The translations under genes and the position numbers were made by a program. DNA of 64,000 nucleotides from a virus, in the UHGV virus genome UHGV-0351052; one strand, given 5' to 3'. The notes under the pieces were generated by a model. That model did not search any database. It saw only the letters and a program-made list of their open reading frames with translations, and was not told the origin of the DNA. Shown here piece after piece: positions 2,757 through 63,366 of this stretch; positions within the stretch are counted from its first letter, which is position 1; every line of letters starts with the position of its first letter.

Positions 2757-2822
2757 ATTGTTCTCTATTCAATTGTTATTGGATGGACTTAGATTCATTA
2801 TACCACGTTTTAACGTGAAGCA

Positions 2823-3221
2823 TTATACCCTATTACTCGAAGCCAGTTGCAGTTTTATCTGCTCAATATCATCAGGGTTATCGATGACCGAAAAGCGTAT
2901 TTCTACTATCAGAGTATAATCATCATAAACTGGTATCACATTAACTGATAATTTATCAATACGTGGCTCATAGTTTCTTACTGCGCTTTCAATATTGCGC
3001 TCAACTGTGTCAGCAGTAAGAGGAGTCATATTTTCAAAAAGCTGGTCTGATAAATCACATCCAAATTCAGGGTCAAACGGTCTTGAACCTTTTCTTGTTG
3101 TAATAATTCCCAAAAGACTGTTTTTAATTGACCTTAATCCAAGTGATCTGGAAACATCTTTGTTCCAATCCATTTTCATTTCCGGGTCAATATCAGAATA
3201 AAGCTTATTAATATTTGCCAT
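2823..3221 (-). CDS. 25: baseplate wedge protein gp25
   Basis: 132 aa; T4 gp25 length and sequence. Confidence 0.95.
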   Translation of the reverse strand: MANINKLYSDIDPEMKMDWNKDVSRSLGLRSIKNSLLGIITTRKGSRPFDPEFGCDLSDQLFENMTPLTADTVERNIESAVRNYEPRIDKLSVNVIPVYDDYTLIVEIRFSVIDNPDDIEQIKLQLASSNRV

Positions 3222-10487: not shown

Positions 10488-10517
10488 ACTATAACACAAC
10501 ACGAGGGACTTGTAAAC
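10488..10517 (-). promoter_or_regulatory. sigma70-type early promoter (-35 GTTTACA, 17-bp spacer, -10 TATAGT)
   Basis: motif on minus strand; part of 54-bp cassette identical to 25900-25953. Confidence 0.5.
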
Positions 10518-12574
10518 TACATTTTGAACTTTTTAGACATTCCATTGATGTTAACCAAAGAAGCTAAGATTTGAGAAACTTCATTTTCCTCTTCTTTTGA
10601 TTCTTCTACAAGGAATTGATTAAATCCAGCCATTGGACGAACTTCACCAGTTTCCATTAGATGGTCGCCATCATATACTGATTCTTCTAATTGTTCAGAA
10701 GGAGGAACGATTGTACCTTCGATTAGATACTTGTTATAAGCAGTTTCTTTCATAAAGTACGTACTTACTTTATTAATCTTCAGTAAAATTCCACGCGGTA
10801 GAATAACTTCAGCTTCTGATGGAAATCCTGATAAATGACCTGGAACGATAACTTTGATTCGCTCAGCTCCTTTAATTACCATACCCACGCTAGTTTCAGC
10901 ATCTTCATTAGCATATGTAGAATGACTACCCATATGCATCAAATCTTCTGCATCAACAGAACCTTCTCCTTCGCCAGAAAATACTGCACCGGAATCATCT
11001 AGAGCCATATAGTTTTTACCATGCTCACCGAAGATATTTGGTTTAAGCGATGTGGATACGAAGTTCTTGAAATAGAACATTTTGTTTTCAATGTTATGAC
11101 GCAAAGTTTTAAAGGTAACTTCTTGTCCACGATAAAGCGTAGTTCCTGGAGGAAGAACTGAACCTTTAGCGAATGCAGAATCCAACGTCTCGATGTGCTT
11201 AATGGCACGTTCCATATATTCTTCACGGGTAGAATCTGGTTTACCCAAGAGGAACGAGTTCATTTCAACATATGAATCTGCACAATAATCTTCAATTACA
11301 TCAGACTCAGCCTGAGTCAGTCCTTTTGGAGTTACTTCGGTGCTTGCGTATTCATATGCCTGAGCAGCAGATTCATTAATCAATTTATAAATGCCATTCA
11401 TGACAAATTGAATAATAGCTACCTTTTCGTCTGGTGTGGCTTTAGAACCTTTAACTAAATCATTGATAATTTTCTTAATAACATCAAAGCTATTAGAAAT
11501 ATTAATGTCAGCGAGATCGCTTAAAATTTTATCGGTTTTATAATCAAAGAATTCTTTATTCTTTAAATATTCTTGAGAACCTTGATGTGTTATATCGCTC
11601 TGCAGCCTGATAGACGGATCACGTAAACGCGCATGGGCCAATGCAATATGATTTCGGAAGCTTTCTAGTTCATAATCGTTAGATTTAAAACGAGAGGCAC
11701 TTCTCATACCACCGATAGCTCCTTTGCCGAAGTTTGAACCAATCTGGATAACGCCAGAATTCATTGGTCCTTCTGCTTTATATACCGGAACTTTAGATTC
11801 AAACTCTTGATATTTCTTGGCAGCGAAGCTATCACCCTGAAGTGAAGCATCGACAGTAGAATATTGAGCTTGTGCTGCTAATCGACGACTAATTTTAGTT
11901 TTCTGAATAACCGCTTGGTCAGTACGTTTATCATTTTCTAAAGCAATAGAAGCAGCAACAGCGACAGCTTTAGGAACAGCATTACCTGTTTTAACGTCTA
12001 CATAAACATCACCGACCTTCGATTCAACTTTTGTGAATAACTCAGTTGAAATAGGAGGTACACCTGGAATGTCTTCTAAATTGGCATTTTTACGGTAAAC
12101 CATAATATATGCATACTTTTTATCATAGTCCCAGATTTCCTTTAAAAGAACATAACGACCTGCTCCTTTAGTACGTACTAAACGGTCAGCAATAACTTGC
12201 ATTTGACGAGCAGCTCCATTTGTTTTACTTTTTAGTACGCGGAATAAGCATGCGTCAATTTTATACTGTTTCATTGTTTGAAGAGCAGTATCAAAAACCG
12301 CATTAATGACACCAATTGGATTTCCACCCAAGTTTTTAAGTTTAACTAATGATAGTTTCTCATTAACACCTATCATTACGATATGCATCATTTTATCGCC
12401 TGGCTTAACGTTTTTATTTGTATCACCGCCAGAGGTGTATGTACAAAATCTAAATCCAGGAAGCACGCTTTCTTCACCGGCTTGAATAGCAAAAATTTGA
12501 GGTATTTTATGCTTAGGATTTAAGTTAACAACCGGCGCCGAAGCGCCGTCAAATAATTCTGTAATAAGTTCCAT
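10517..12574 (-). CDS. Alt-like ADP-ribosyltransferase paralog (685 aa)
   Basis: N-terminus MELITELFD and first ~230 aa similar to adjacent Alt; ART motifs R (TTLYRGQ), STS (FVSTSL), ExE (EAEVILPRG); divergent central region. Confidence 0.85.
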   Translation of the reverse strand: MELITELFDGASAPVVNLNPKHKIPQIFAIQAGEESVLPGFRFCTYTSGGDTNKNVKPGDKMMHIVMIGVNEKLSLVKLKNLGGNPIGVINAVFDTALQTMKQYKIDACLFRVLKSKTNGAARQMQVIADRLVRTKGAGRYVLLKEIWDYDKKYAYIMVYRKNANLEDIPGVPPISTELFTKVESKVGDVYVDVKTGNAVPKAVAVAASIALENDKRTDQAVIQKTKISRRLAAQAQYSTVDASLQGDSFAAKKYQEFESKVPVYKAEGPMNSGVIQIGSNFGKGAIGGMRSASRFKSNDYELESFRNHIALAHARLRDPSIRLQSDITHQGSQEYLKNKEFFDYKTDKILSDLADINISNSFDVIKKIINDLVKGSKATPDEKVAIIQFVMNGIYKLINESAAQAYEYASTEVTPKGLTQAESDVIEDYCADSYVEMNSFLLGKPDSTREEYMERAIKHIETLDSAFAKGSVLPPGTTLYRGQEVTFKTLRHNIENKMFYFKNFVSTSLKPNIFGEHGKNYMALDDSGAVFSGEGEGSVDAEDLMHMGSHSTYANEDAETSVGMVIKGAERIKVIVPGHLSGFPSEAEVILPRGILLKINKVSTYFMKETAYNKYLIEGTIVPPSEQLEESVYDGDHLMETGEVRPMAGFNQFLVEESKEEENEVSQILASLVNINGMSKKFKM

Positions 12575-28074: not shown

Positions 28075-28668
28075 CGTTATGTTCAATTGAGCTCGCTAAT
28101 TCTCAACCCGTTCTCTTATGAACTGCTACATATTACTATGCAGACCAGACTATATCACAATCCCAGAGGGATTCTCCCCATTTCGAGTCGCTTGACCCTA
28201 CGTCCGAAGACTAGTCGTTGAACCTTGCTTTGCAATTGTCGCCGTGCCATCGTTTATATGTTGATGGTGATAAATCTTTCTTATCACAATATGGACAATT
28301 CAATTGAATTCTATTTGGATTTAATTTGCATCTGTCATTATGTTTTAAATAAAATCCAGGACCTTTACCAATGTGACCGCAGAAATCACATGTGATTTCT
28401 TTTTGTGCAGGATGGGTCCCGTTCTTAACCATTTCTAATGTTTTTGCTGATGTTCTTTTCTTATGGTCTTCCATCAGAATCTTTAGGTATAGGTCCGTTA
28501 GCATCTATCCAAATTTTTCTATAGTTCAATTGTGCATCCTCTTAAAAGTATAATCATATTATACTAATTAAAGGTGCAAGCAAAACCTTGGCTGCTAGTT
28601 TTCCTATAAAGGACTTTCCAGCAATTAAAGGAGTTTTCGATAAACGTTACCGTTTAAAGGCGCATTTT
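28075..28668 (-). mobile_element. group I self-splicing intron in nrdB (about 594 nt)
   Basis: exon 1 frame terminates after YVSFA; intron splits a Cys codon (T|GT); shares core elements (CAGACTATATC..., CGAGTC-CTTGACCCTAC, GTCGTT) with td intron; ends in G. Confidence 0.75.
28211..28504 (-). pseudogene. truncated intron endonuclease ORF (I-TevIII-like zinc-finger remnant, 97 aa)
   Basis: ORF inside nrdB intron with CxxC/CxxC zinc-finger motifs but no HNH catalytic motif. Confidence 0.6.
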
Positions 28669-29344
28669 ACGCAAAAGATACATAAAAACGAATAGCTTCT
28701 AAGGCATTAATAACGTGCAAACAGAGGTAAAGAGATTTCATTAAAGCACGTTTAGCTTCGGCTTCTTGTTTAATAGCTCGGTTTAAACGAAAGACAGCAT
28801 CAGGAGATTCTTTAGCTAGTTCTACAAATTCTTTAGCATTTTCCCATTCACGGGTTTTAATCAGAACATCATCATAATAGCGTCCAATAGATTCGGCTCG
28901 TTTCATGATTGCTTCATCTAATACAATCTCATCAAATACCTTTGACGGATCAGTATAAAGATTTCGCATGATATGTGTATATGAACGGCTGTGAATAGTT
29001 TCACTAAAAGTCCACGTAGCAACCCATGTATCAAGGCTTGGGTCTGAAATTAATGACATAAGTACAGCAGACGGCGCACGACCCTGAATGCTATCCAAAA
29101 GTGATTGATACTTCAGATTATTAGTAAAAATATTTTGCTGATACTGAGGAAGCTTATTAAACTGTGCAGCATCCATCATTAAGTTTACTTCTTCGGGACG
29201 CCAGAAAAAACTGATCTGTCGCTCAATGAGTTCTTCAAATACTCGATGTCGTTGAATATCATATCGAGCTAAACCTAATCCAGAACCAAAGAACATCGGT
29301 TCATTCAAAACATCAACTGGATTTGTATTAAAAACTGTGCTCAT
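28669..29344 (-). CDS. nrdB: ribonucleotide reductase small subunit NrdB, exon 1
   Basis: 225-codon frame ending ...AIRFYVSFA followed by in-frame stop at intron start. Confidence 0.85.
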
Positions 29345-29395
29345 AATTTTTCCTCTTAGTTAATAGATAGTGACTCGTCCGTGAGTCAAATTATA

Positions 29396-31660
29396 TCATA
29401 ATTTACAGGATGAACAGTCTTCAGCTTTTGGAGTTTCTATTTCATAATCATCAGTACCAGAACCATCACGGGTATTATGATAATAGAAATTTTTAATGCC
29501 ATAATACCATCCGTATAGCATGTCATCAATCATTATTGACATTGGAACCTTTCCTTTTGGAAAAATCTGCGGGTCATAATATGTATTCGCTGAAGCCGAT
29601 TGACATATCCATTTCAGCATAATAGCTACCTGCGTAAGATAAGGTTTATTACCTTTCTTAGCTAATTTCCATGTATAATCATAGAGGTCTATGTTATGCT
29701 CAATATTGGGCACGACTTGATTAAAGGAGCCCTCTTTTGATTCTTTAACAGAGACTGGTCCACGTGGAGGCTCGATACCGTTTGTACTGTTAGAAACTTG
29801 GGAAGATGACTCACACGGCATAAGTGCTGATAATGTGCTATTACGGATGCCAAAGAGCTTAAGGTCTTCCCGCAGCGACGACCAGTCACAAACGTATTTT
29901 GGAGCTGCGATTTGGTCAATCTTTTTATTGTACCAGTCGATAGGTAATTCGCCTCGAGACCAACGAGTGTCTGAATAATATTCGCAAGGTCCTTTTTCTT
30001 TGGCGAGCTTAATGGATGCTTTAATGAGTCCATACTGTAATCTCTCAAATAGTTCATGTGTTAAATCGTTAGCATCTTCATAAGAAGCAAAGTTACTTGC
30101 CAGCCAAGCTGCATAGTTAGTAACACCTACACCAAGGTTACGACGCTTTTTAGCTTTTTCTGCTTCAGGAACTGGATATCCTTGGTAATCCAAAAGATTA
30201 TCAAGAGCACGAACCTGGACTTCTGCCAATTCATTAATTTTATCTTGGTCTTGCCAGTCAAAATTATCCAGTACGAAGGCAGAGAGAGTACAGAGCCCAA
30301 TTTCAGCATCAGGACTATTCACATCATTTGTTGGAATAGCAATTTCACAGCACAAGTTACTCTGACGAATAGGTGCCTTTTCACGAATAAACGGAGTATA
30401 GTTATTCGTATTATCAATGAACTGCACATAAATCCTTGCTGTTCCTGAACGTTCAGTCATGAGCAATTCAAATAGTTCACGGGCTTTAATACGCTTTTTA
30501 CGAATATTAGGGTCTTTTTCTGCTGCTTCGTATAATTCACGGAAACGGTCTTGGTCTTTAAAATAAGAATAATAAAGCTCTCCGCCCATTTCATGGGGAC
30601 TGAACAAAGTAATGTAATCGTTCTTTCCAAAACGTTCCATCATCAAATCATTCAGTTGAACACCATAATCCATATGACGAATGCGGTTTTCTTCTACGCC
30701 TTTGTTATTTTTCAAAACAAGAAGATTTTCAACTTCCAAATGCCAAATAGGATAATAAGCAGTAGCAGCGCCGCCACGAATTCCACCCTGTGAGCATGAT
30801 TTAACAGCAGTCTGAAAATGTTTCCAAAAAGGAATAACACCAGTATGGCGTACTTCACCCATGCCAATCTTAGAACCTTCGGCACGAATCATACCAACGT
30901 TAATACCGATTCCAGCTCGTTTGGAAATATATTCAACAATTGAAGCAGAAGCCTTATTGATAGACTTCAGTGAATCGCCTGCCTCAATAACAACGCATGA
31001 ACTAAACTGCCGAGTTGGAGTACGGCAACCAGCCATAATAGGAGTTGGTAATGAAATCTGTCGAGTAGATACTGCTTCATAAAAACGGATAACATGTTTT
31101 AATCTATCAACAGGTTCATCTTGATGCAGTGCCATTCCAATAGCCATAAATGCAAACTGTGGAGTTTCATAAATTTGACCAGTGGTTTTATCTTTAACTA
31201 AATATTTTTCTTTTAATTGCATCGCCCCGGAATAAGTAAATTCCATATCCCGTTCGTGCTTAATTTTTGATTCTAAAAATGTAATTTCTTCTGCTGAATA
31301 TTTTGACAATAATTCAGGGTCATATTTACCTTCATTTACACAGTAAGAAATATGGTCAATAAATGAACGTGGTTCATACTGCCCATAAACATGCTTACGA
31401 AGAGCGAACATTAAACAGCGTGCAGCTACATATTGATAATCAGGTTCTTCAACCGAAATAGAATTCGCAGCGGCCTTAATGACAATAGTCTGAATATCAT
31501 CAGTTGTCATTCCATCACGGAGATAAGATTTAATATTTTCATATAATTCATAAGGATCTACTGATGTTCCTTCAGCTGCCCAAGATAAAACTTTAATAAT
31601 TTTTTGTGGGTCAAAGCTCTGAGAAACACCACTACTTTTGATAACATTAATTAATTGCAT
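29396..31660 (-). CDS. nrdA: ribonucleotide reductase large subunit NrdA
   Basis: 754 aa from MQLINVIKSSG (ATG 31660 with GAGGA SD); track ORF extends 32 codons upstream. Confidence 0.95.
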   Translation of the reverse strand: MQLINVIKSSGVSQSFDPQKIIKVLSWAAEGTSVDPYELYENIKSYLRDGMTTDDIQTIVIKAAANSISVEEPDYQYVAARCLMFALRKHVYGQYEPRSFIDHISYCVNEGKYDPELLSKYSAEEITFLESKIKHERDMEFTYSGAMQLKEKYLVKDKTTGQIYETPQFAFMAIGMALHQDEPVDRLKHVIRFYEAVSTRQISLPTPIMAGCRTPTRQFSSCVVIEAGDSLKSINKASASIVEYISKRAGIGINVGMIRAEGSKIGMGEVRHTGVIPFWKHFQTAVKSCSQGGIRGGAATAYYPIWHLEVENLLVLKNNKGVEENRIRHMDYGVQLNDLMMERFGKNDYITLFSPHEMGGELYYSYFKDQDRFRELYEAAEKDPNIRKKRIKARELFELLMTERSGTARIYVQFIDNTNNYTPFIREKAPIRQSNLCCEIAIPTNDVNSPDAEIGLCTLSAFVLDNFDWQDQDKINELAEVQVRALDNLLDYQGYPVPEAEKAKKRRNLGVGVTNYAAWLASNFASYEDANDLTHELFERLQYGLIKASIKLAKEKGPCEYYSDTRWSRGELPIDWYNKKIDQIAAPKYVCDWSSLREDLKLFGIRNSTLSALMPCESSSQVSNSTNGIEPPRGPVSVKESKEGSFNQVVPNIEHNIDLYDYTWKLAKKGNKPYLTQVAIMLKWICQSASANTYYDPQIFPKGKVPMSIMIDDMLYGWYYGIKNFYYHNTRDGSGTDDYEIETPKAEDCSSCKL

Positions 31661-31715: not shown

Positions 31716-32447
31716 ATGAAATCTGGAATATATGCTATTATAAACACTAAAACCAATAAGCACTATATAGGAAGTGCAATTAATTTTGAAGAACGATGGA
31801 AACGACACTTTAAAGATTTAGATAATGGAAATCATCATTCAATAAAGCTGCAGCGTTCTTATAATAAGCATGGGAAAGATGCTTTCGTATGTAAAATCAT
31901 AGAAGAACTTCCATACGAAAAATCTATCATTATTGAACGTGAAAATTATTGGATACATGAATATGACTCAAAGGAAAATGGGTATAATATAGCAGACGCA
32001 TCGTTTGGGGATACCTTATCTCATCACCCAAGAAAGCAAGAAATCCTTAATAAAATTTCAAATGCAATTAAAAATAATAATTCAAAATTATCACCAGAAG
32101 AACTTAAGCAAAAACATGGTAGACCTAAAGATATCAAAGGTAAAACTATAGAAGAACACTATGGGTTAGATCGTGCTATAGAACTAAGCAAAAAGTTCCA
32201 AGAAAGAAACGCTGCGCTTAATATGAAAGGCATCAATAATCCATATTATGGACAGACACATACCAATGAAGTTAGAAAACGAATTTCTGACTCACAAAGA
32301 GGTAAAAAGAAACCCCATCTAAGAGTAAGTATAGATGGGGTAGAATATCCAACAATAGCAGAAGCTGTGCGTCAAACCGGAATAAGCAGAAAACTTATAT
32401 CTAAAAGATGTGCTCTAGATTGTTGGGAATCATATTTATACTGCTAA
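31716..32447 (+). CDS. free-standing GIY-YIG homing endonuclease, I-TevI paralog (243 aa)
   Basis: N-terminal ~100 aa about 70% identical to I-TevI catalytic domain (GIY...YIG, RWKRHFK, NGYNIAD); divergent C-terminal domain; opposite strand to flanking nrdA and td. Confidence 0.85.
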
Positions 32448-32681
32448 AGTTCTACATTCTTCATATTGTTTTTCCGTTAAAACAGTAATATCATAATAAC
32501 AGTCAGAAGAAGTTTTAACTGTAGAAATTTTATTATCAAAATACTCACGAGTCATTTTATGAGTATAATATTTTTTGCCATAAATGATAATAGGCTGATT
32601 TGGTCCTGGAACTTCTAACTCGCTTGGGTTAGGAAGTGTAAAAAGAACTACACCAGAAGTATCTTTAAATCGTAAAATCAT
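32436..32681 (-). CDS. hypothetical protein (81 aa) downstream of td
   Basis: ORF; 3' end overlaps convergent endonuclease gene by 12 nt. Confidence 0.5.
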
Positions 32682-32989
32682 ATTGCCATTTTCCCTTTAA
32701 TTGCTGGATGCGATTCATAATTTTCAAGGATAAAATCTTTCGGTTTCATGTATTCAGTTAACCAGTAAAGCTGTGTTTCGGTGTCACAATTTCCAAACTC
32801 TATAGGCCAATCAATTTTAAGTTCACACAGTTCTTTAGGCTCACGACGTAAAATTTCTTTACATTGCTCAGTATGATTCATATAGATGTGAGTATTACCG
32901 CCAGAAAATATCAAATCTCCTGGGATAAGATTACACATCTTAGCTACAATATGAACTAACGCAGCGTATGATGCAATATTAAATGGTAG
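32678..32989 (-). CDS. td: thymidylate synthase, exon 2
   Basis: starts LPFNIASY directly after intron-terminal ATG; exon 1 + exon 2 = 286 aa. Confidence 0.9.
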
Positions 32990-33435
32990 CATTATGTTCA
33001 GATAAGGTCGTTAATCTTACCCCGGAATTATATCCAGCTGCATGTCACCATGCAGATCAGACTATATCTCCAACTTGTTAAAGCAAGTTGTCTATCGTTT
33101 CGAGTCACTTGACCCTACTCCCCAAAGGGATAGTCGTTAGGCATTTATGTAGAACCAATTCCATTTATCAGATTTTACACGATAAGTAACTAATCCAGAC
33201 GAAATTTTAAAATGCCTCTTCCATCTCTTTTCAAAATCTTTAGCACTTCCTACATATACTTTATTGTTTAAAGTATTTTTAATCTGATAAATTCCGCTTT
33301 TCATAAATACCTCTTTAAATATAGAAGTATTTATGAAAGGGCAGTCCTACAATTTAGCACGGGATTGTCTACTAGAGAGGTTCCCCGTTTAGATAGATTA
33401 CAAGTATAAGTCACCTTATACTCAGGCCTCAATTA
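32990..33435 (-). mobile_element. group I self-splicing intron in td (446 nt) with deleted endonuclease ORF
   Basis: exon 1 ends ...VDVFLG before in-frame TAA; intron 5' TAATTGAGGCCTGAGTATAAGGTG and 3' ...ATG match T4 td intron as recalled; 446 = 1016 - 570. Confidence 0.85.
33137..33304 (-). pseudogene. I-TevI remnant (55 codons; in-frame internal deletion)
   Basis: hand translation MKSGIYQIKNTLNNKVYVGSAKDFEKRWKRHFK|ISSGLVTYRVKSDKWNWFYINA: I-TevI N-terminal 33 aa fused to C-terminal 22 aa at an RHFK repeat. Confidence 0.75.
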
Positions 33436-34807
<1,372 letters not shown>

Positions 34808-37092: not shown

Positions 37093-37175
37093 TTTTATTT
37101 CCTTTTTAATTTAATTTAATTTAATTTAATTAACAGTTGGTGCTATGACGATGTATGACCTCATAGCTGGTCAGT
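37093..37175 (-). promoter_or_regulatory. gene 32 translational operator (5' leader with AU-rich pentamer repeats)
   Basis: (TAATT)n / mRNA UUAAAUUAAAUUAAA repeats directly upstream of gene 32 ATG, preceded by structured region. Confidence 0.6.
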
Positions 37176-37190
37176 GAGATAATTATAATC

Positions 37191-37198
37191 TATTTATA
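37191..37198 (-). promoter_or_regulatory. late promoter TATAAATA (minus strand) upstream of gene 32
   Basis: plus-strand TATTTATA about 100 nt upstream of gene 32 ATG. Confidence 0.4.
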
Positions 37199-37206
37199 AT
37201 AAGCAA

Positions 37207-45188: not shown

Positions 45189-48100
45189 ATGGCTACTTTA
45201 AAACAAATACAATTTAAAAGAAGCAAAACTGCAGGTCAACTTCCTGCTGCTTCAGTATTAGCCGAAGGTGAATTGGCTATTAATTTAAAAGATAAAACAA
45301 TTTTCACAAAAGATGACTCAGGCAATGTTATAGAATTAGGTTTAAAATATGGAGGAACAATTGATGGTTCTTTAACTGTTAATGGAAATATAATTGGAAA
45401 TTTAACAGGTAACGCTGCAACTGCAACGAAATTAAAAACAGCACGAAAAATTAATGGTATATCCTTTGATGGGTCAAAGGATATCACGCTAACTCCATCT
45501 GACATAAATGTCAATAGCACAACATTTATAAAAAATAATGGCGAATTACCTGTTGATGCTAATTTAGATGAGTATGGGCCTGTTGAAGAATATCTTGGAG
45601 TTTGGTCGAAAGCAACTTCAACCAACGCTCAACCAGCAAATAAATTTCCAGAACAAAATGCTGTAGGTGTGCTAGAAGTATTTGTGGCCGGTCAATTTGC
45701 TGGTACTCAGAGATATACAACTAGATACGGAAATGTTTATATTCGTTCCTTGACTGCTACATGGAACGGAGTAAATGGTCCGTGGAGTGTGTGGCGAAAT
45801 ATTCAATCCGGTACTCGTTCACTGTCAACAACAATTGATCTTAATGATCTAGGAGGCGCTGAACACTTGGGTTTGTGGCGAAATAGTTCAAATTCCATTG
45901 CTACCTTTGACAGAAATTTCCCAGAAGAAGGATCGTCAGCTCAAGGACTTTTAGAAGTATATGAAGGTGGAAACTATTCTCGCACACAGAGATATACGAC
46001 CAGATTTGGTGTTGTTTATACTCGCTGTCTTACTGCTGCGTGGGATGCTTCTGCGCCTAAATGGGGACCGTGGCAACAAGTCGGTAATGTCACACCAGCG
46101 ACTTTTTATGATGGAGATCTGAATGATTTTAAAACTCCTGGGTTATATAATATTTTAGGCACTGATGCCGTTATTAACTGTCCTACAGGTGAAGGTTTGC
46201 CGACTGTTATTGTTGGTTTGCTGGAAGTTAAACAGCGTGCTTCTGGCGGTGCTATTTTCCAAAAATTTACTACTGCCGGAACGGGTTCAACTACTCGCGA
46301 TCGTATTTTTGAGCGCGCATATACCGGCGGTGTTTGGGGTACATGGAACGAAGTATACACATCCTATTCTCTACCAATTACTTTGGGTATGGGCGGTATT
46401 AAATCTAACTTAGCTGAGTTAGACTGGCAAACCTTTGATTTTGTCCCTGGTAGTATGTTTAGTGTTCCTTTGAACAAAATAAAGAATATGCCAGCAAATA
46501 TGGATTGGGGTACGATTGACGGAAACTTGGTTATGTTTTCTGTCGGTCCTAGCGAACACACTAGCACAGGGCGTACTGTTCAGGTTTGGCGTGGTACTGT
46601 ATCCCAGACAAACTACCGTTATTTTGTCGTTCGTGTGTTCGGTAATTCTGGAAATAGAACTTGTACAGTTCGACGCGTTGTTCTTGAAGATGGTCGCCAC
46701 AAATGGACAGCGCAACAAGATTTTAATGGTGCAGTTAACTTCGGTGCTCCTACCAATTTTAACTCTACTGTTAACCTTAATAACACTACCACATTTAAAA
46801 CAGAAGTTAAATTCCGCTCATTGAATGCATTTAAAATGTATGGTGGTAATTTTGGTACAATTTTCCGTAATGATGGTGAAAGTCTTTATATTCTTTCCAC
46901 CAACGAAAATGATCAAGATGGAAACTTTAACACCAATAGACCTTTCCGGTATCAGTTTAGAACTGGTGATGTTACTTTGGGTGGAACTAGTGGTGCTAAT
47001 ATTTTAAGATTAAAAAGTAGTTCTCTTGCTGCTACCTTTGGTGGTGATGTTAACTTAAGTAAAGGTACATTGACGTTTGAGGCGGGTGGTAAGCAATCAC
47101 GAGATTACTTCCGGTTTAACCATTGGGGTGATAGCAATAACGCTCGTGATAACATTATTCAGTTAGAAGACAGCAAAGGCGCTCATTTTTCCACTGAACG
47201 TACTTTAGCGACAGGTGCAATTAAAACTCGTTTCTTTGGCGAAACATTCACTGATGGTACATTATACCTAAATCAGATGAATAATAGCTCTGAACGATTC
47301 TCTATCAACAATTGGGGAAATTCAGAAGCTGGACGCGCGGCAGTATTGGAAGTCGGCGATTCCAAAGGTTATCACTTCTATACGGAACGCAGGACAGATA
47401 ACAGTTTGATGTTTGATGTTGCTGGCGCTTTTACTGTGCATGGACCTTCCGGGATTACTATCAAAAACTCAGCTGGCGCACGCCATATCTGGTTTAGAGA
47501 TGATAGCGATGCAGAAAAGGCTGTTATCTGGGCTACAGATGATGGTCTTTTACATATACGAAATAATAATGGGGGTTCATTTAGTCATCACTTCCAGGGT
47601 GCAATGATTAAAGTGGGAGAGCGTGTTCCTTATGCCGGAGATCGAGGGCTTATTCGCGGTGAAGTTTCTGGTGGTGCTTATGTGGATTGGAGAGGCCGCC
47701 CTGCTGGTTTGTTGCTTGACTGTCAACAAAGCGTTAATAGTGCTCATGCTATTTGGAAAGCGGTTGATTGGGGGCGTAACTACATCGCTGCTCTGGACGT
47801 TCATTGTCCCGGCGATAGTAATAATACTGCAGCAGCGGTTCTCCATGTTCAGTCTGCTGATTATCAATTCCATGCAAATGGGAGCTTTGATGCCAGTGGC
47901 AACGGAAACTTTAACGATGTTTATATTCGATCAGACCGTCGCCTTAAAGACAATATAGAAGATTATACCGGAAATGCGTTAAGTTTGATTGGTAAACTGA
48001 AAGTGAAAACTTACGATAAAGTTAAATCTCTTAAGGACCGTGAAATTATCGGTCATGAGATCGGCATTATCGCACAGGATTTACAAGAAATATTACCAGA

Positions 48101-48284
48101 AGCGATTAATATTTCGAAAATTGGCAATCTTGATAAACCAGACGAAGTTCTGACAATTTCTAACTCTGCTGTGAATGCTCTTTTAATTAAGGCCATTCAG
48201 GAAATGAGTGAAGAAATTAAAGAATTGAAAACGCCTTTCTTCACTAAAATTGCTCGCAAAATTGGTAAATATTTTAAATTCTAA
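45189..48284 (+). CDS. 37: long tail fibre distal subunit gp37 with C-terminal intramolecular-chaperone-like domain
   Basis: 1031 aa; C-terminal ~110 aa (..[13 protein letters not shown]..) resembles autocleaving IMC domains. Confidence 0.95.
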
Positions 48285-48288
48285 CAAC

Positions 48289-48308
48289 AAGGGGGAAATT
48301 TCCCCCTT
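48289..48308 (+). other. perfect 20-bp palindrome AAGGGGGAAATTTCCCCCTT between genes 37 and 38
   Basis: hairpin-forming palindrome; short T-tract only. Confidence 0.4.
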
Positions 48309-48321
48309 TGGAGTATAAATT

Positions 48322-49104
48322 ATGGCAGTAGTTGGAGTTCCTGGCTGGATTGGAAGTTCAGCCGTAAATGAAACGGGACAGCGCTGGATGAGTCAAGCGG
48401 CTGGTCAACTAAGATTGGGTGTTCCTTGCTGGATGAGTCAATTTTCAGGTCGCTCGCGAGAAATTATTCATACACTTGGCGCAGACCATAACTTCAATGG
48501 TCAATGGTTCCGTGATAGATGCTTTGAGGCGGGTAGTACACCTATAGTGTTTAATATTACAGGTGATTTAGTATCATATTCTAAAGATGTTCCTTTATTC
48601 TTCATGTACGGGGATACACCTAATGAATATGTTCAGTTAAATATACACGGCGTAACGATGTATGGTCGTGGTGGTAATGGCGGTAGCAATGGTCCTGGCT
48701 CATCTGGTGGTCATTGTATTCAAAATGATATTGGTGGAAGACTAAGAATTAATAATGGAGGTGCTATCGCAGGCGGTGGCGGTGGTGGCGGTGGTGGGTA
48801 TTATTCTCCCACGAAACCAATGAAATTAACCTTTGGTGGTGGTGGCGGTCGTCCGTTTGGTGCTGCTGGTGGATCTGCCAACATGCAATCAGGCGCAACT
48901 GCTGGTACTCTTTATGCGCCTGGCGCAGGGTCTGTAAACGGTGTCTATAGCGGCGGTGGCGGTGGTGAGGTAGGCGCCGCAGGAGGTAGATGCAATATTC
49001 GCGGTCAAGGATCTGAATATAATGGCGGCGCTGCTGGTTATGCTGTCATAGGGTCCGCTCCAACATGGCAAAATGTTGGAGCAATATATGGTCCAAGAGT
49101 ATAA
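48322..49104 (+). CDS. 38: T2-type gp38 receptor-binding adhesin with glycine-rich motifs
   Basis: 260 aa; conserved N-terminus [15 protein letters not shown]; poly-Gly tracts GGGGGGGGG separating variable segments. Confidence 0.85.
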
Positions 49105-49134
49105 TTTGAATAAATATCCTTAAAAGGAGGGTCT

Positions 49135-60477: not shown

Positions 60478-60507
60478 ATTATACCACATCCTTGTGGTAA
60501 AGTAAAC
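60478..60507 (-). promoter_or_regulatory. sigma70-type early promoter (-35 GTTTACT, 17 bp, -10 TATAAT)
   Basis: consensus -10; overlaps 3' end of gene 60. Confidence 0.5.
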
Positions 60508-60851
60508 TACTGACTCATCCATTCTTTACGAAGGTCAGCATTATCTCCCATGAGCATTTCAAAAAGCTCTTTCCAGTTCTCAGGAAGTTTAACAACATCA
60601 TATACTGGATTTTGAATCATCTCACGATATTCAGATTTTTCCAAAGAGCCAAGTCCTTTAATATAACGGATGCTATGTTTAGGTAGAGCATCTTTGGCAC
60701 TCTCATATTCAGCGACTGTATAAAACCATTCTTGTTTTTTACCGACCTGAGCGATGATTACAGGAGTTTTGACAAAGCGAATTCGTCCTTGCTCAAACAA
60801 TTCTGGCCAATTACTAAAAAACCCGAGCAGAGAAGGATAAATAGAACCTAA
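60507..60851 (-). CDS. 60: topoisomerase II subunit gp60, codons 47-160 (after translational bypass)
   Basis: frame LGSIYPSLLGFFSNWPELFEQGRIRF... continues from landing site; matches T4 gp60 as recalled. Confidence 0.85.
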   Translation of the reverse strand, partial: LGSIYPSLLGFFSNWPELFEQGRIRFVKTPVIIAQVGKKQEWFYTVAEYESAKDALPKHSIRYIKGLGSLEKSEYREMIQNPVYDVVKLPENWKELFEMLMGDNADLRKEWMSQ

Positions 60852-60901
60852 TCCAATAATCTCTTAATTATGAGGTATTTCTATAGATAGCCCGAAGGCT
60901 A
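60852..60901 (-). promoter_or_regulatory. 50-nt translational bypass (coding gap) element of gene 60
   Basis: take-off GGA, in-frame UAG, hairpin UAGCCUUCGGGCUA, 50-nt gap ending in landing GGA. Confidence 0.8.
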
Positions 60902-61039
60902 TCCATCGTGATCTGCGTCTGTCATAATAGCGACATTCGCATAGTTCATTGAAGAGGATTTAATAGAACGACGAACATTGTTCTGCAATTTATATTTTTT
61001 CATATCAACGCTAGAAGAATCAATTTTTACAAATTTCAT
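60902..61039 (-). CDS. 60: topoisomerase II subunit gp60, codons 1-46 (before bypass)
   Basis: MKFVKIDSSSVDMKKYKLQNNVRRSIKSSSMNYANVAIMTDADHDG then UAG. Confidence 0.85.
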
Positions 61040-61838
61040 TATACACCTCATAGAACTTTTCATCAGGAATCCAACCGCGTTTAAATTCATTAAATGCTCG
61101 GCCGAATAATTTTGAATTCACAGTTATATTATTAACTGATTTCCATTTAGCAACTCCCGTTCGTTTATAATGATCGGGGTCATATTTCGTGACGTACCAT
61201 TCATATAAATTTGGTATTAATTTTACAGCCTCTGGATTTGTCGCTGATTTATTATACCATGGTTTCGCTTTTTCAAGTTCAGCTGCTTTTGCAGTAGCAG
61301 CAACAGTATTTCCAATACCAACTAATTTTTCAGCTTTAATGCGTGGATCATTAACATGAAGACGAAAAACTTCGCCTTTTTCATTTTTAAAGCATGTCAT
61401 GCCTTTAATTCCAGGAAGCTTAACACCTTTATTAACACCGCACCATTCCTTTGGGTTAAATGATCCTTTAATTAATAAGGCGCATTTACCCGATTTAATA
61501 CTTCTCATTAAAACTTTATCTTTCATAAAGTTTTTTGACCATTCAGATACTGCTCTTTGATGGTAAATTCTAGCAATTTCATATAATTTACTAGAACGTA
61601 AATATTTTTCAGTGTTTAACATTCTATTCATCGCATATGCCATTTCACGATTACGATGAATTTTATATAGTAGAAAATGTGCTAAAAAGTGTTCACGAAA
61701 AGTCAGTTTCACCAAATTTTCTTTATCATCAGAACCTCCCATTGATCTTGGAAGGATATGATGAATTTCACCCTTAAATTTAGAAACGCGGGTTTTACCC
61801 CGCACTATTAAGTCATTATAGATTTTTTCGTAATTCAC
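61020..61838 (-). CDS. mobA: HNH homing endonuclease (mobA-like)
   Basis: 272 aa; HNH motif EIHHILPRSMGGSDDKENLVKLTFREH; inserted between genes 39 and 60, overlapping both. Confidence 0.8.
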   Translation of the reverse strand: MNYEKIYNDLIVRGKTRVSKFKGEIHHILPRSMGGSDDKENLVKLTFREHFLAHFLLYKIHRNREMAYAMNRMLNTEKYLRSSKLYEIARIYHQRAVSEWSKNFMKDKVLMRSIKSGKCALLIKGSFNPKEWCGVNKGVKLPGIKGMTCFKNEKGEVFRLHVNDPRIKAEKLVGIGNTVAATAKAAELEKAKPWYNKSATNPEAVKLIPNLYEWYVTKYDPDHYKRTGVAKWKSVNNITVNSKLFGRAFNEFKRGWIPDEKFYEVYNEICKN

Positions 61839-63366
61839 CTACTGTTATCCATTTACCATTAATCTGTACCTCATCATTTTCATTTACGATAATTGTATCG
61901 CCATTTAGTTCGAAAGTAAACCACTCGCCATCTTCTTTTTCTTCAAACGCCTTTTCACCAAGAACTAGACCAGTGATTGCGCAAATATCAAATAGTTCTT
62001 TGTTTTTAAGCATATCTGCATAAGACATACCCCAACTGTTGAGAACTTTACCACGCAATGGATAACCACCATGAAGTTCTTTATCGCGAACATCAATAAG
62101 ATATCCGATAGCAGAATCACCCTCAGTCAAGAAAAGAGTAGTATCAGCATCTTTACCACAAAGGTTCGCTTTGATATGTTTATGAACCTTAGCTTTAGAA
62201 GCCTTTTTAGCTGCTTTAGTTTCTGCTGCTTTTTCTGCCGCCAATTTACGAGCTAATGCTGCTTCAATGATTGGCATCAGAATTGCTTCATTATTTAGAA
62301 TAGCACGTGAAATCTTTTTAGCGTCAAGTTGAATATGACTACGAATTTCGCCAAATGGAGAAGTCAAACGCTCTTTAGTCTGAGAATCAAATCGCATGTT
62401 TTTCATATCACGAACAAACATAACGATAGTCAAACATTCTTTGACACGTGCTTTAGTCACATCAATTTTGAACTTACGTTTGATTTGTGGAATAAGGTCT
62501 TCACAAATATCATCCATAACACAGTCAATGTGATGGCCACCATTCTTAGTATGAATGTTATTAACGTATGTTAATTGACGAAAACCATCCGGTGAACGAC
62601 CAACTGCAATAGAACAATTTTCTTGTTCTTGAACAATAGCATGCTCATCATATTGGCGTGCATATTTCTTAAAATTGCCCTGAACCTTTTTACCATTAAA
62701 GGTAAATTGAATATCAGGATAAACTACTGCAAGTGTCTGGAGACGATCTAGTGTAATGTCAAGATAAACTTGGGACAGCTCATTAGTTTCAAATGACATA
62801 AAATCAGGAATGAAAGTAACACGAGTTCCTTTCCATTTTCCAGGAATATCTTCCCATGATTTATTTTCCATGCCATTTGAACAACGAACTACAATATTAT
62901 TTTGACCATCGCCAGTTTCACCAACAAACATCACAGAAAAAATGTTTGTCAAACTAGAACCAACACCATTCATACCGCCAGTGACGCGTTCTTTATCATC
63001 ACCAAAGTTACCACCTGCTTTTGGAATAGTCCAGGCAGCAACAGGACCAGGAATTTCTTCACCGGTAGGTGTTTTAACCATCGCTTGTGGAATACCGCGA
63101 CCGTTATCTTCAACTGTTACTTGATTGTTTTTAATAGTAACATTAATTTTATTTGCGAATTTAAACTTAGTACGAATACCTTCATCTACTGAGTTATCGA
63201 TAATTTCATCAATAAGCTTAACAAGACCAGGTACATACTGAACACTTTCCCATTTACCAAACAGAAAGCGCTCATGCATTTCATTAGCGGAAGAGCCAAT
63301 GTACATGCCGCTACGCTTTTTGATATGTTCAATATCGCTCAGAATTTTAATTTCATTCTTAATCAT
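61816..63366 (-). CDS. 39: DNA topoisomerase II large subunit gp39 (GyrB-like ATPase)
   Basis: 516 aa; ATPase N-box EIIDNSVDE and G-loop GGMNGVG. Confidence 0.95.
   Translation of the reverse strand: MIKNEIKILSDIEHIKKRSGMYIGSSANEMHERFLFGKWESVQYVPGLVKLIDEIIDNSVDEGIRTKFKFANKINVTIKNNQVTVEDNGRGIPQAMVKTPTGEEIPGPVAAWTIPKAGGNFGDDKERVTGGMNGVGSSLTNIFSVMFVGETGDGQNNIVVRCSNGMENKSWEDIPGKWKGTRVTFIPDFMSFETNELSQVYLDITLDRLQTLAVVYPDIQFTFNGKKVQGNFKKYARQYDEHAIVQEQENCSIAVGRSPDGFRQLTYVNNIHTKNGGHHIDCVMDDICEDLIPQIKRKFKIDVTKARVKECLTIVMFVRDMKNMRFDSQTKERLTSPFGEIRSHIQLDAKKISRAILNNEAILMPIIEAALARKLAAEKAAETKAAKKASKAKVHKHIKANLCGKDADTTLFLTEGDSAIGYLIDVRDKELHGGYPLRGKVLNSWGMSYADMLKNKELFDICAITGLVLGEKAFEEKEDGEWFTFELNGDTIIVNENDEVQINGKWITVGELRKNL

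Follow-up and report, generated by a model that had tools for sequence, protein, structure and literature searches.

The gene 39–mobA–gene 60 locus

In the stretch analysed here (64,000 nt of the UHGV virus genome UHGV-0351052, referred to below as the window), gene 60 lies on the minus strand behind gene 39 and mobA, and its coding sequence is divided into two open reading frames (ORFs). The gene is laid out as follows:

61045..61049, minus strand: putative Shine–Dalgarno (SD) sequence GAGGU of gene 60, within UAUGAGGU (61052..61045); read from the sequence, its function assigned from its position
61039..60902, minus strand: ORF1 of gene 60, 46 codons, MKFVKIDSSSVDMKKYKLQNNVRRSIKSSSMNYANVAIMTDADHDG, 100% identical to T4
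60904..60902, minus strand: take-off codon GGA (Gly46, the last codon of ORF1), read directly
60901..60899, minus strand: in-frame stop codon TAG/UAG right after the take-off codon, read directly
60901..60852, minus strand: coding gap (bypass cassette) of exactly 50 nt, TAGCCTTCGGGCTATCTATAGAAATACCTCATAATTAAGAGATTATTGGA, identical to the T4 misc_feature 2803..2852
60854..60852, minus strand: landing codon GGA, which closes the gap, read directly
60851..60507, minus strand: ORF2 of gene 60, 114 sense codons and a stop, resuming at TTA/UUA and encoding the remainder of Toprim plus the C-terminal region

An earlier sequence-only reading of this DNA had described two minus-strand ORFs, an in-frame UAG, and a 50-nt gap with a take-off GGA, a hairpin, and a landing GGA; all the coordinates were confirmed and all these elements are present. 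The minus strand reads ATG ACA GAC GCA GAT CAC GAT GGA TAG CCTTCGGGCTATCTATAGAAATACCTCATAATTAAGAGATTATT GGA TTA GGT TCT through the junction, with 47 nt between the take-off and landing GGA, which gives the 50-nt gap. Each frame of the gap contains a stop: TAG at offsets 0 and 18 in frame 0, TAA at 31 in frame 1, and TAA at 35 in frame 2. The first in-frame canonical start (ATG, GTG, or TTG) of ORF2 does not occur before 60800, 17 codons into the frame.

Joined together, ORF1 and ORF2 encode a gp60 of 160 aa and 18.6 kDa. The Toprim metal-binding motif IMTDADHDG is encoded in ORF1 and the remainder of the domain in ORF2, which is matched by Pfam TOPRIM_C (E = 6.4e-8). Because the split falls inside the Toprim domain and ORF2 carries TOPRIM_C, neither piece alone makes a complete domain. 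The same reading had also proposed that the two ORFs specify one contiguous gp60 of 46 + 114 codons, and this stands, since the joined 160-aa protein is identical to T4 gp60 and the junction matches unsplit gp39 of T6 and RB3. The latter protein (605 aa) is contiguous through NIAIMTDADHDGLGSIYPSLLGFF, and the predicted junction DHDG|LGSIYPSLL (peptide DADHDGLGSIYPSLL) corresponds to the uninterrupted T6/RB3 gp39 sequence MTDADHDG-LGSIYPSLL. At the DNA level, the 50 nt appear as a clean insertion in the alignment with the unsplit RB3/T6 genes. The PDB structures of T4 gp39-gp60 (8yo3 and others) were considered as proof of a contiguous gp60 and rejected, as they come from a codon-optimised fusion construct.

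A base-by-base alignment with T4 AF158101 and T4T HM137666 shows no difference in ORF1 (138 nt) or the gap (100% identity). In both records, the same 50 nt bear the label “non-coding translational bypass region in mRNA”, and the ORFs are joined as gene 60. ORF2 differs from T4 by four substitutions; each is at a third position and synonymous when read in the post-hop frame.

The ~1.6 kb around the bypass site are 99.5–99.7% identical to phage T4 and its close relatives, while the best identity of the first 25 kb of the window to any phage record is 96.4%. The window is collinear with T4 coordinates 112,680 to 5,964, a span that crosses the end of the T4 record, with 88–97% identity and several indels. 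On these alignments, the window is assigned to a Tequatrovirus relative of T4, ~96% identical to it elsewhere and distinct from T4 itself, which carries a T4-type cassette. The distal tail-fibre region (the 3′ part of gene 37 and gene 38, 45343..49110) has no megablast-level match to T4; tail-fibre divergence is expected for host-range determinants. At 10517..12574 (minus strand), the window encodes a second full-length Alt-like ADP-ribosyltransferase paralogue of 685 aa (PHROG 802, E = 6e-256), where T4 has the remnant ORFs alt.-1 and alt.-2 only.

Signals in and around the gap

The following elements are those to which roles in bypassing have been ascribed, together with one conserved motif within the gap:

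60883..60906, minus strand: take-off stem-loop, with a UUCG loop and a 10-bp stem that pairs 60906..60897 with 60892..60883; core hairpin UAGCCUUCGGGCUA
60871..60878, minus strand: motif AUACCUCA, gap nt 24–31, invariant across the four aligned clades (T4, Proteus, S16, and Thanatos types)
60861..60863, minus strand: mini Shine–Dalgarno (mini-SD) GAG, gap nt 39–41, with AU-rich flanks; read from the sequence, its role taken from the literature
60790..60829, minus strand: region of the 3′ stem-loop, a barrier to forward slippage (or forward translocation); position taken from the literature, 14 nt 3′ of the landing site
within ORF1 (60902..61039), minus strand: nascent-peptide bypass signal, consisting of KYKLQNNVRRSIKSSS with Y16, Q19, V22, R24, Y33, M39, and T40 (a residue list taken from the literature) and H44, assigned by identity to T4

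The 5′ arm of the take-off stem-loop holds both the take-off GGA and the UAG stop. The hairpin has a predicted free energy of −14.7 kcal/mol versus −4.2 ± 2.0 for shuffled sequences (z = −5.37), none of the 200 shuffles being as stable. Its 14-mer core occurs once in the window even if two mismatches are allowed, the chance expectation being 0.16. In the alignment of ten sequences from four clades described below, pairing within the stem is 100% versus 22–42% when the 3′ arm is slid by 1–3 columns. Four sequences have A-U, three G-C, and three U-A at the pair involving the take-off codon's third base, a case of compensatory covariation.

The mini-SD GAG is followed by AUUAUU and then by the landing GGA, so that it is placed 6 nt 5′ of the landing codon; the literature puts it at “GAG 39-41”, the same position as in the window. 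As for the nascent-peptide signal, ORF1 matches at every one of its 46 residues chain C of PDB entry 5np6, which is itself 46 residues long (E = 2.4e-23), and the accession 5NP6 appears in a cryo-EM paper on an E. coli ribosome that has stalled where take-off occurs in gene 60.

Two accessory stem-loops, 5′ and 3′, are counted here as present by identity; their predicted folds are no more stable than those of shuffled sequences. The published 5′ stem-loop sequence is found in the window, whose 5′ region is identical to that of T4, and its fold gives z = −0.81 against shuffles. The 3′ region folds no better than shuffles (z = +0.9), and the predicted 3′ helix, with −7.8 kcal/mol in the window versus −10.7 in T4, beats shuffles in neither phage. 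One of the four synonymous differences from T4 is located here: an A-to-G change at 60822 (minus strand), in gp60 codon 56 and at position 80 from the gap start. It removes one pair from the predicted 3′ stem-loop, which becomes ~3 kcal/mol weaker, and turns the downstream GGA 78-80 into GGG. In mutant constructs, ribosomes that overshoot have been documented to land at GGA 78-80 (literature including a 2024 preprint). According to the 2024 preprint, the role of the 3′ structure is subtle when the wild-type landing site is present, and therefore little effect is expected from the A-to-G change. A scan of the whole window against Rfam at gathering thresholds gave no match, which is uninformative, as Rfam has no family for the bypass element.

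The run A-ACCUCA within the gap is the longest invariant one outside the hairpin in the four-clade alignment. The string CCUC is absent from the text of both the 2022 and the 2024 preprints, and ACCUC is absent from the former. In cassettes of the T4 type, all 8 nt of ACCUCAUA are complementary to the gene 60 ribosome-binding site UAUGAGGU, and the predicted ensemble for the window pairs the gap ACCUC with the gene 60 SD at 4.85 out of 5. By chance, such pairing arises in 0.55% of shuffles and in one of 62 control ORFs. Elsewhere it is weak or absent (2.8 in HY01, 0.17 in Proteus, 0.001 in S16, and 0.24 in Thanatos). SD-like and anti-SD-like strings are trivially complementary; given this and the weak pairing in other clades, a regulatory role of the pairing is rated as unlikely. 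It is thus only tentatively suggested that AUACCUCA might serve a function separate from hopping efficiency, either as a partner in long-range SD pairing that would throttle initiation and space ribosomes, or as part of a DNA-level block to MobA. Ribosome spacing is reportedly needed for bypassing. According to published work, efficiency can rise when sequence separating the take-off stem-loop from the mini-SD is deleted, so conservation of the motif is not explained by efficiency.

The MobA element and its carriers

The gap is part of a larger insert, whose components and neighbours are the following:

61816..63366, minus strand: gene 39, encoding the N-terminal portion of the split large subunit of topoisomerase II (ATPase and the first half of Toprim); an ORF with Pfam HATPase_c and DNA_gyraseB
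60843..61953, minus strand: MobA element, ~1.1 kb, from a global alignment with the unsplit RB3/T6 genes; its 3′ boundary lies at about 60843–60852
61020..61838, minus strand: mobA, an intact HNH-family homing endonuclease gene, 272 aa; an ORF assigned to PHROG 655 (homing endonuclease), E = 2.5e-57
60903..60948, minus strand: homology region “homR”, 46 nt, which stands in for the deleted parental Toprim codons (NYANVAIMTDADHDG); from the RB3/T6 alignment, the concept being taken from the literature

In alignment with the unsplit genes, the 50-nt gap comes out as the 3′ end of the ~1.1 kb MobA element, which splits the topoisomerase II large-subunit gene into 39 and 60. The element comprises, in this order, a C-terminal extension of gp39, mobA, an N-terminal extension of gp60, homR, the 50-nt cassette, and 9 further diverged nt. 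Gene 39 begins in the T4 annotation at the ATG; its last ~43–45 codons (from about 61953 down) are derived from the insert, and homology to RB3/T6 gene 39 ends at 61954. Within gene 60, the first ~30 codons make up the unique N-terminal stretch inside the element. homR is 74–78% identical to the RB3/T6 parental sequence versus 97% in the flanks. mobA shares its first 23 nt with the end of gene 39 and its last 20 nt with the start of gene 60, in both cases out of frame. Its product is identical to T4T MobA in 271 of 272 residues (99.6%), and the Pfam HNH match is weak (20.1 bits, slightly under the cut-off). In the T4 reference AF158101, mobA is given as a pseudogene together with ORF 60.1, and the record is 11 nt longer over this stretch. 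The anatomy of the element is that of clade 1 as described by Manning & Atkins (bioRxiv 10.1101/2022.08.31.505936).

According to literature citing Bonocora et al. (2011), MobA nicks the unsplit gene, after which repair copies the whole region in. As related there at second hand, it is the 50-nt insert, and not the nearby polymorphisms, that blocks nicking of the carrier DNA. By this account, MobA of the window may be an active nicking endonuclease, and the insert may protect its carrier. Group I introns (for example, those in td and nrdB of the window) and inteins that house homing endonucleases likewise let a selfish, endonuclease-associated insert reside in an essential gene while sparing the protein, and they too remove the endonuclease's own target site. 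However, introns and inteins are removed by RNA or protein splicing, whereas the gap of the MobA element is predicted to remain in the mRNA and be passed over by the ribosome; in addition, the MobA element, unlike introns and inteins, splits its host gene into two polypeptides.

A search of the phage collection with the neighbourhood of the gap gave 587 matching records, of which only 48 contain ORF1 and the gap; the remaining matches begin at or just past the landing site, inside unsplit gene 39. A tighter query found 54 phage records with homologous cassettes. The T4 clade accounts for 42 of these, 29 being identical to the window over 121 nt. The others are five Proteus phages, five Salmonella S16-like phages, Escherichia phage UoN_LG358_1 (same genus, Gelderlandvirus), and Shewanella phage Thanatos-1. 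Acinetobacter and Aeromonas clades have also been described, the gap of the latter being 20 nt according to the preprint only (Manning & Atkins, bioRxiv 10.1101/2022.08.31.505936). Within this diversity, the cassette of the window falls into clade 1, the T4 type.

Ten representatives of four clades were taken for the cassette alignment. All ten have an ORF1 of 44–46 codons ending in IAIMTDAD(H/V)DG, a UAG directly after the take-off codon, the hairpin tip CC-UU(C/A)G-GG, and, shortly before the landing codon, a mini-SD rich in purines (GAG; in Thanatos-1, GAA/AAG). Their take-off/landing pairs (GGA/GGA, GGG/GGA, GGU/GGC, and GGU/GGU) are each readable by one tRNA. The set independently arrives at the published finding of selection on the take-off hairpin, the matched codons, the stop, and the mini-SD (bioRxiv 10.1101/2022.08.31.505936).

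The cassettes of other Straboviridae (Proteus, Salmonella S16, Shewanella Thanatos) share with the window the Toprim insertion site and the layout of gene 39, an upstream homing-endonuclease gene, a 44–46-codon ORF, and the gap. The upstream gene is annotated as a homing endonuclease in SJ_PmiM, PM2, and S16 and as a hypothetical protein in UoN_LG358_1 and Thanatos-1. Also in common are the UAG after the take-off codon, the CC-UUCG-GG tip, the purine-rich mini-SD, and the invariant ACCUC. They differ from the window in their codon pairs (GGG/GGA, GGU/GGC, GGU/GGU) and in gaps of 48–52 nt in the copies examined, and are 72–81% identical to it over the cassette.

Two carriers deserve separate mention. 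Salmonella phage GRNsp7 (ON720975.1), a member of the T4 clade, has a 51-nt gap owing to an extra T in GAGATTTATTGGA (~260–311 of the extracted stretch). This may be either a natural length variant, tolerated by frame-independent landing, or a homopolymer sequencing error. The cassette of Proteus phage SJ_PmiM (2549–2610 of the extracted stretch) combines take-off GGG and landing GGA with a 51-nt gap, and its hairpin has a compensating U-to-C change; the GGG/GGA pairing was described earlier by Manning & Atkins (bioRxiv 10.1101/2022.08.31.505936). An in-frame GGG of SJ_PmiM, 6 nt (two codons) past the landing codon, was considered as a conserved alternative landing site and discarded, as PM2 and Pm5461 have GGU there.

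Among the matches listed in an IMG/VR scan for the 14-mer hairpin TAGCCTTCGGGCTA there were unrelated UUCG hairpins. A pattern anchored on the Asp-Gly codons left one contig, and a T4-type copy was not found in IMG/VR by this route.

The window contains further traces of mobile elements. A ~440-nt group I intron (32993..33432, minus strand) interrupts its td gene (exons 33984..33433 and 32992..32678); it is devoid of the I-TevI ORF, ~557 nt of the T4 intron being absent. The Rfam Intron_gpI match to it, 40.5 bits, is below the gathering score of 50 and was missed by the default scan. A second sub-threshold Intron_gpI match lies in nrdB (28126..28362, minus strand; 33 bits, E = 1.5e-5), and this region aligns unbroken to T4 nrdB, intron included. 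Between nrdA and td, on the opposite strand, there is a GIY-YIG homing-endonuclease ORF of 243 aa (31716..32447, plus strand; PHROG 314, E = 4e-43) that takes the place of the nrdA.1 region of T4, where T4 has no such gene. Compared with T4, the window lacks mobE and nrdB.1 (between nrdA and nrdB, 29344..29400) and segG (between genes 32 and 59, 37121..37206). Thus, its set of homing endonucleases is unlike that of T4, though the MobA element is kept.

Predicted bypassing of the gap and the alternatives

Taken together, the locus is almost certainly an instance of the T4-type programmed translational bypass of gene 60, carried by a Tequatrovirus other than T4. No feature of the sequence speaks against this explanation. 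The sequence-only reading had recognised in it the classic T4 hopping element and had recommended an alignment with T4 gene 60. The alignment agrees with that view: ORF1 and the gap are fully identical to T4, where the gap is annotated as the bypass region, and ORF2 has the four synonymous differences described above. The window shares with the T4 system (Huang 1988; Weiss 1990; Samatova 2014; Chen 2015; Agirrezabala 2017) ORF1, the gap, and gp60, along with the GGA codons for take-off and landing, the UAG stop, the hairpin with its UUCG loop, the GAG mini-SD, and the nascent peptide. It differs in being another Tequatrovirus genome, in the four synonymous ORF2 changes, one of them in the predicted 3′ stem-loop, and in its intact mobA, a pseudogene in the T4 reference AF158101.

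That ribosomes would bypass the gap and make a single gp60 follows here from identity to T4, where this has been shown. By the mechanism established for T4, ribosomes would translate the 46 codons of ORF1, and the nascent peptide would grip the exit tunnel, slowing the ribosome at Gly46 (GGA), with the peptidyl-transferase centre held inactive. The CC-UUCG-GG top of the hairpin would fold in the A site over the UAG, keeping out RF1 and near-cognate tRNAs. EF-G with GTP would then carry out a pseudo-translocation that unpairs peptidyl-tRNA-Gly from the GGA, the tRNA staying in the P site, and the hyper-rotated ribosome would slide over ~47 nt without decoding. Refolding of the mRNA (the 5′ stem-loop and the take-off stem-loop) behind the ribosome would give the movement its direction and help to drive it forward. 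Pairing of the GAG mini-SD with the anti-SD of 16S rRNA, together with the 3′ stem-loop, would arrest the ribosome so that the tRNA re-pairs at GGA 48-50, and decoding would restart at UUA to give one 160-aa gp60. In T4, the hop is completed by about half (~50–60%) of the ribosomes, the others terminating or dropping off, which means that a 46-aa product is made as well.

The existence of this product beside full-length gp60 is one of the two points in favour of the view that the gene is simply broken, i.e., that ORF1 ends at the UAG as a 46-aa peptide and ORF2 is either not made or initiates by itself, leaving two polypeptides or a pseudogene. The other is that automatic GenBank annotations give separate CDSs, “hypothetical protein”, or “frameshift”. 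This explanation is nevertheless highly improbable. The essential Toprim motif IMTDADHDG would be cut off from the rest of its domain, while unsplit homologues are contiguous exactly across the junction; ORF2 is devoid of an in-frame ATG, GTG, or TTG before 60800; and none of the substitutions relative to T4 changes the protein once the post-hop frame is read, in agreement with the earlier view that the gene is not a pseudogene. The hairpin, the matched codons, and the mini-SD are kept across clades with covariation, and the T4 bypass product has been seen by mass spectrometry (literature).

Equally hard to defend is the explanation that the 50 nt are a tiny intron cut out of the RNA before translation. 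The group I introns in td and nrdB of the window make removal at the RNA level conceivable, but 50 nt are far too short for self-splicing, and the region has no Rfam family match. Moreover, bypassing has been reproduced by in vitro translation of the full-length gene 60 mRNA, and the gap hairpin has been seen in the ribosomal A site by cryo-EM (literature).

Still less probable is joining of the ORFs by stop-codon readthrough or a conventional +1/−1 frameshift, even though the gap, being 3n+2 nt long, changes the reading frame as a frameshift would. Since every frame of the gap contains stops, no open path is left, and neither readthrough nor a single frameshift can join the ORFs; the earlier exclusion of a frameshift thus holds. 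Besides, ~16 foreign residues would enter the invariant Toprim motif, which is contiguous in unsplit homologues, and the 51-nt gap of GRNsp7 fits frame-independent landing and not a fixed frameshift. A sequencing or assembly artefact of the window is just as remote, the same 50 nt being found in 42 independently sequenced T4-clade records and diverged versions in Proteus, Salmonella S16-like, and Shewanella phages.

A different system of translational bypassing is known from the literature in mitochondria of Magnusiomyces capitatus (Lang et al. 2014), where the “byp” elements are non-coding inserts of 27–55 nt skipped by ribosomes, as in T4. These elements are not homologous to that of T4, are present in many copies per genome, and operate in a mitochondrial translation system; an unassigned sense codon and not a stop follows the take-off site, and there is no associated homing endonuclease.

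Among cases of programmed ribosome hopping, the gene 60 bypass is the founding one and the best studied, and its mechanism, the mobile cassette, and divergent homologues have all been published, so the element itself is already known and the window adds no new kind of element. What it contributes is a further natural carrier of clade 1, in which MobA is intact and the 3′ stem-loop is a variant. In annotations, gene 60 should appear as a single joined CDS, and many records of related phages still split it. Several GenBank carrier records present the gene as two CDSs, as “hypothetical protein”, or as “frameshift”, which is a recurring annotation error.
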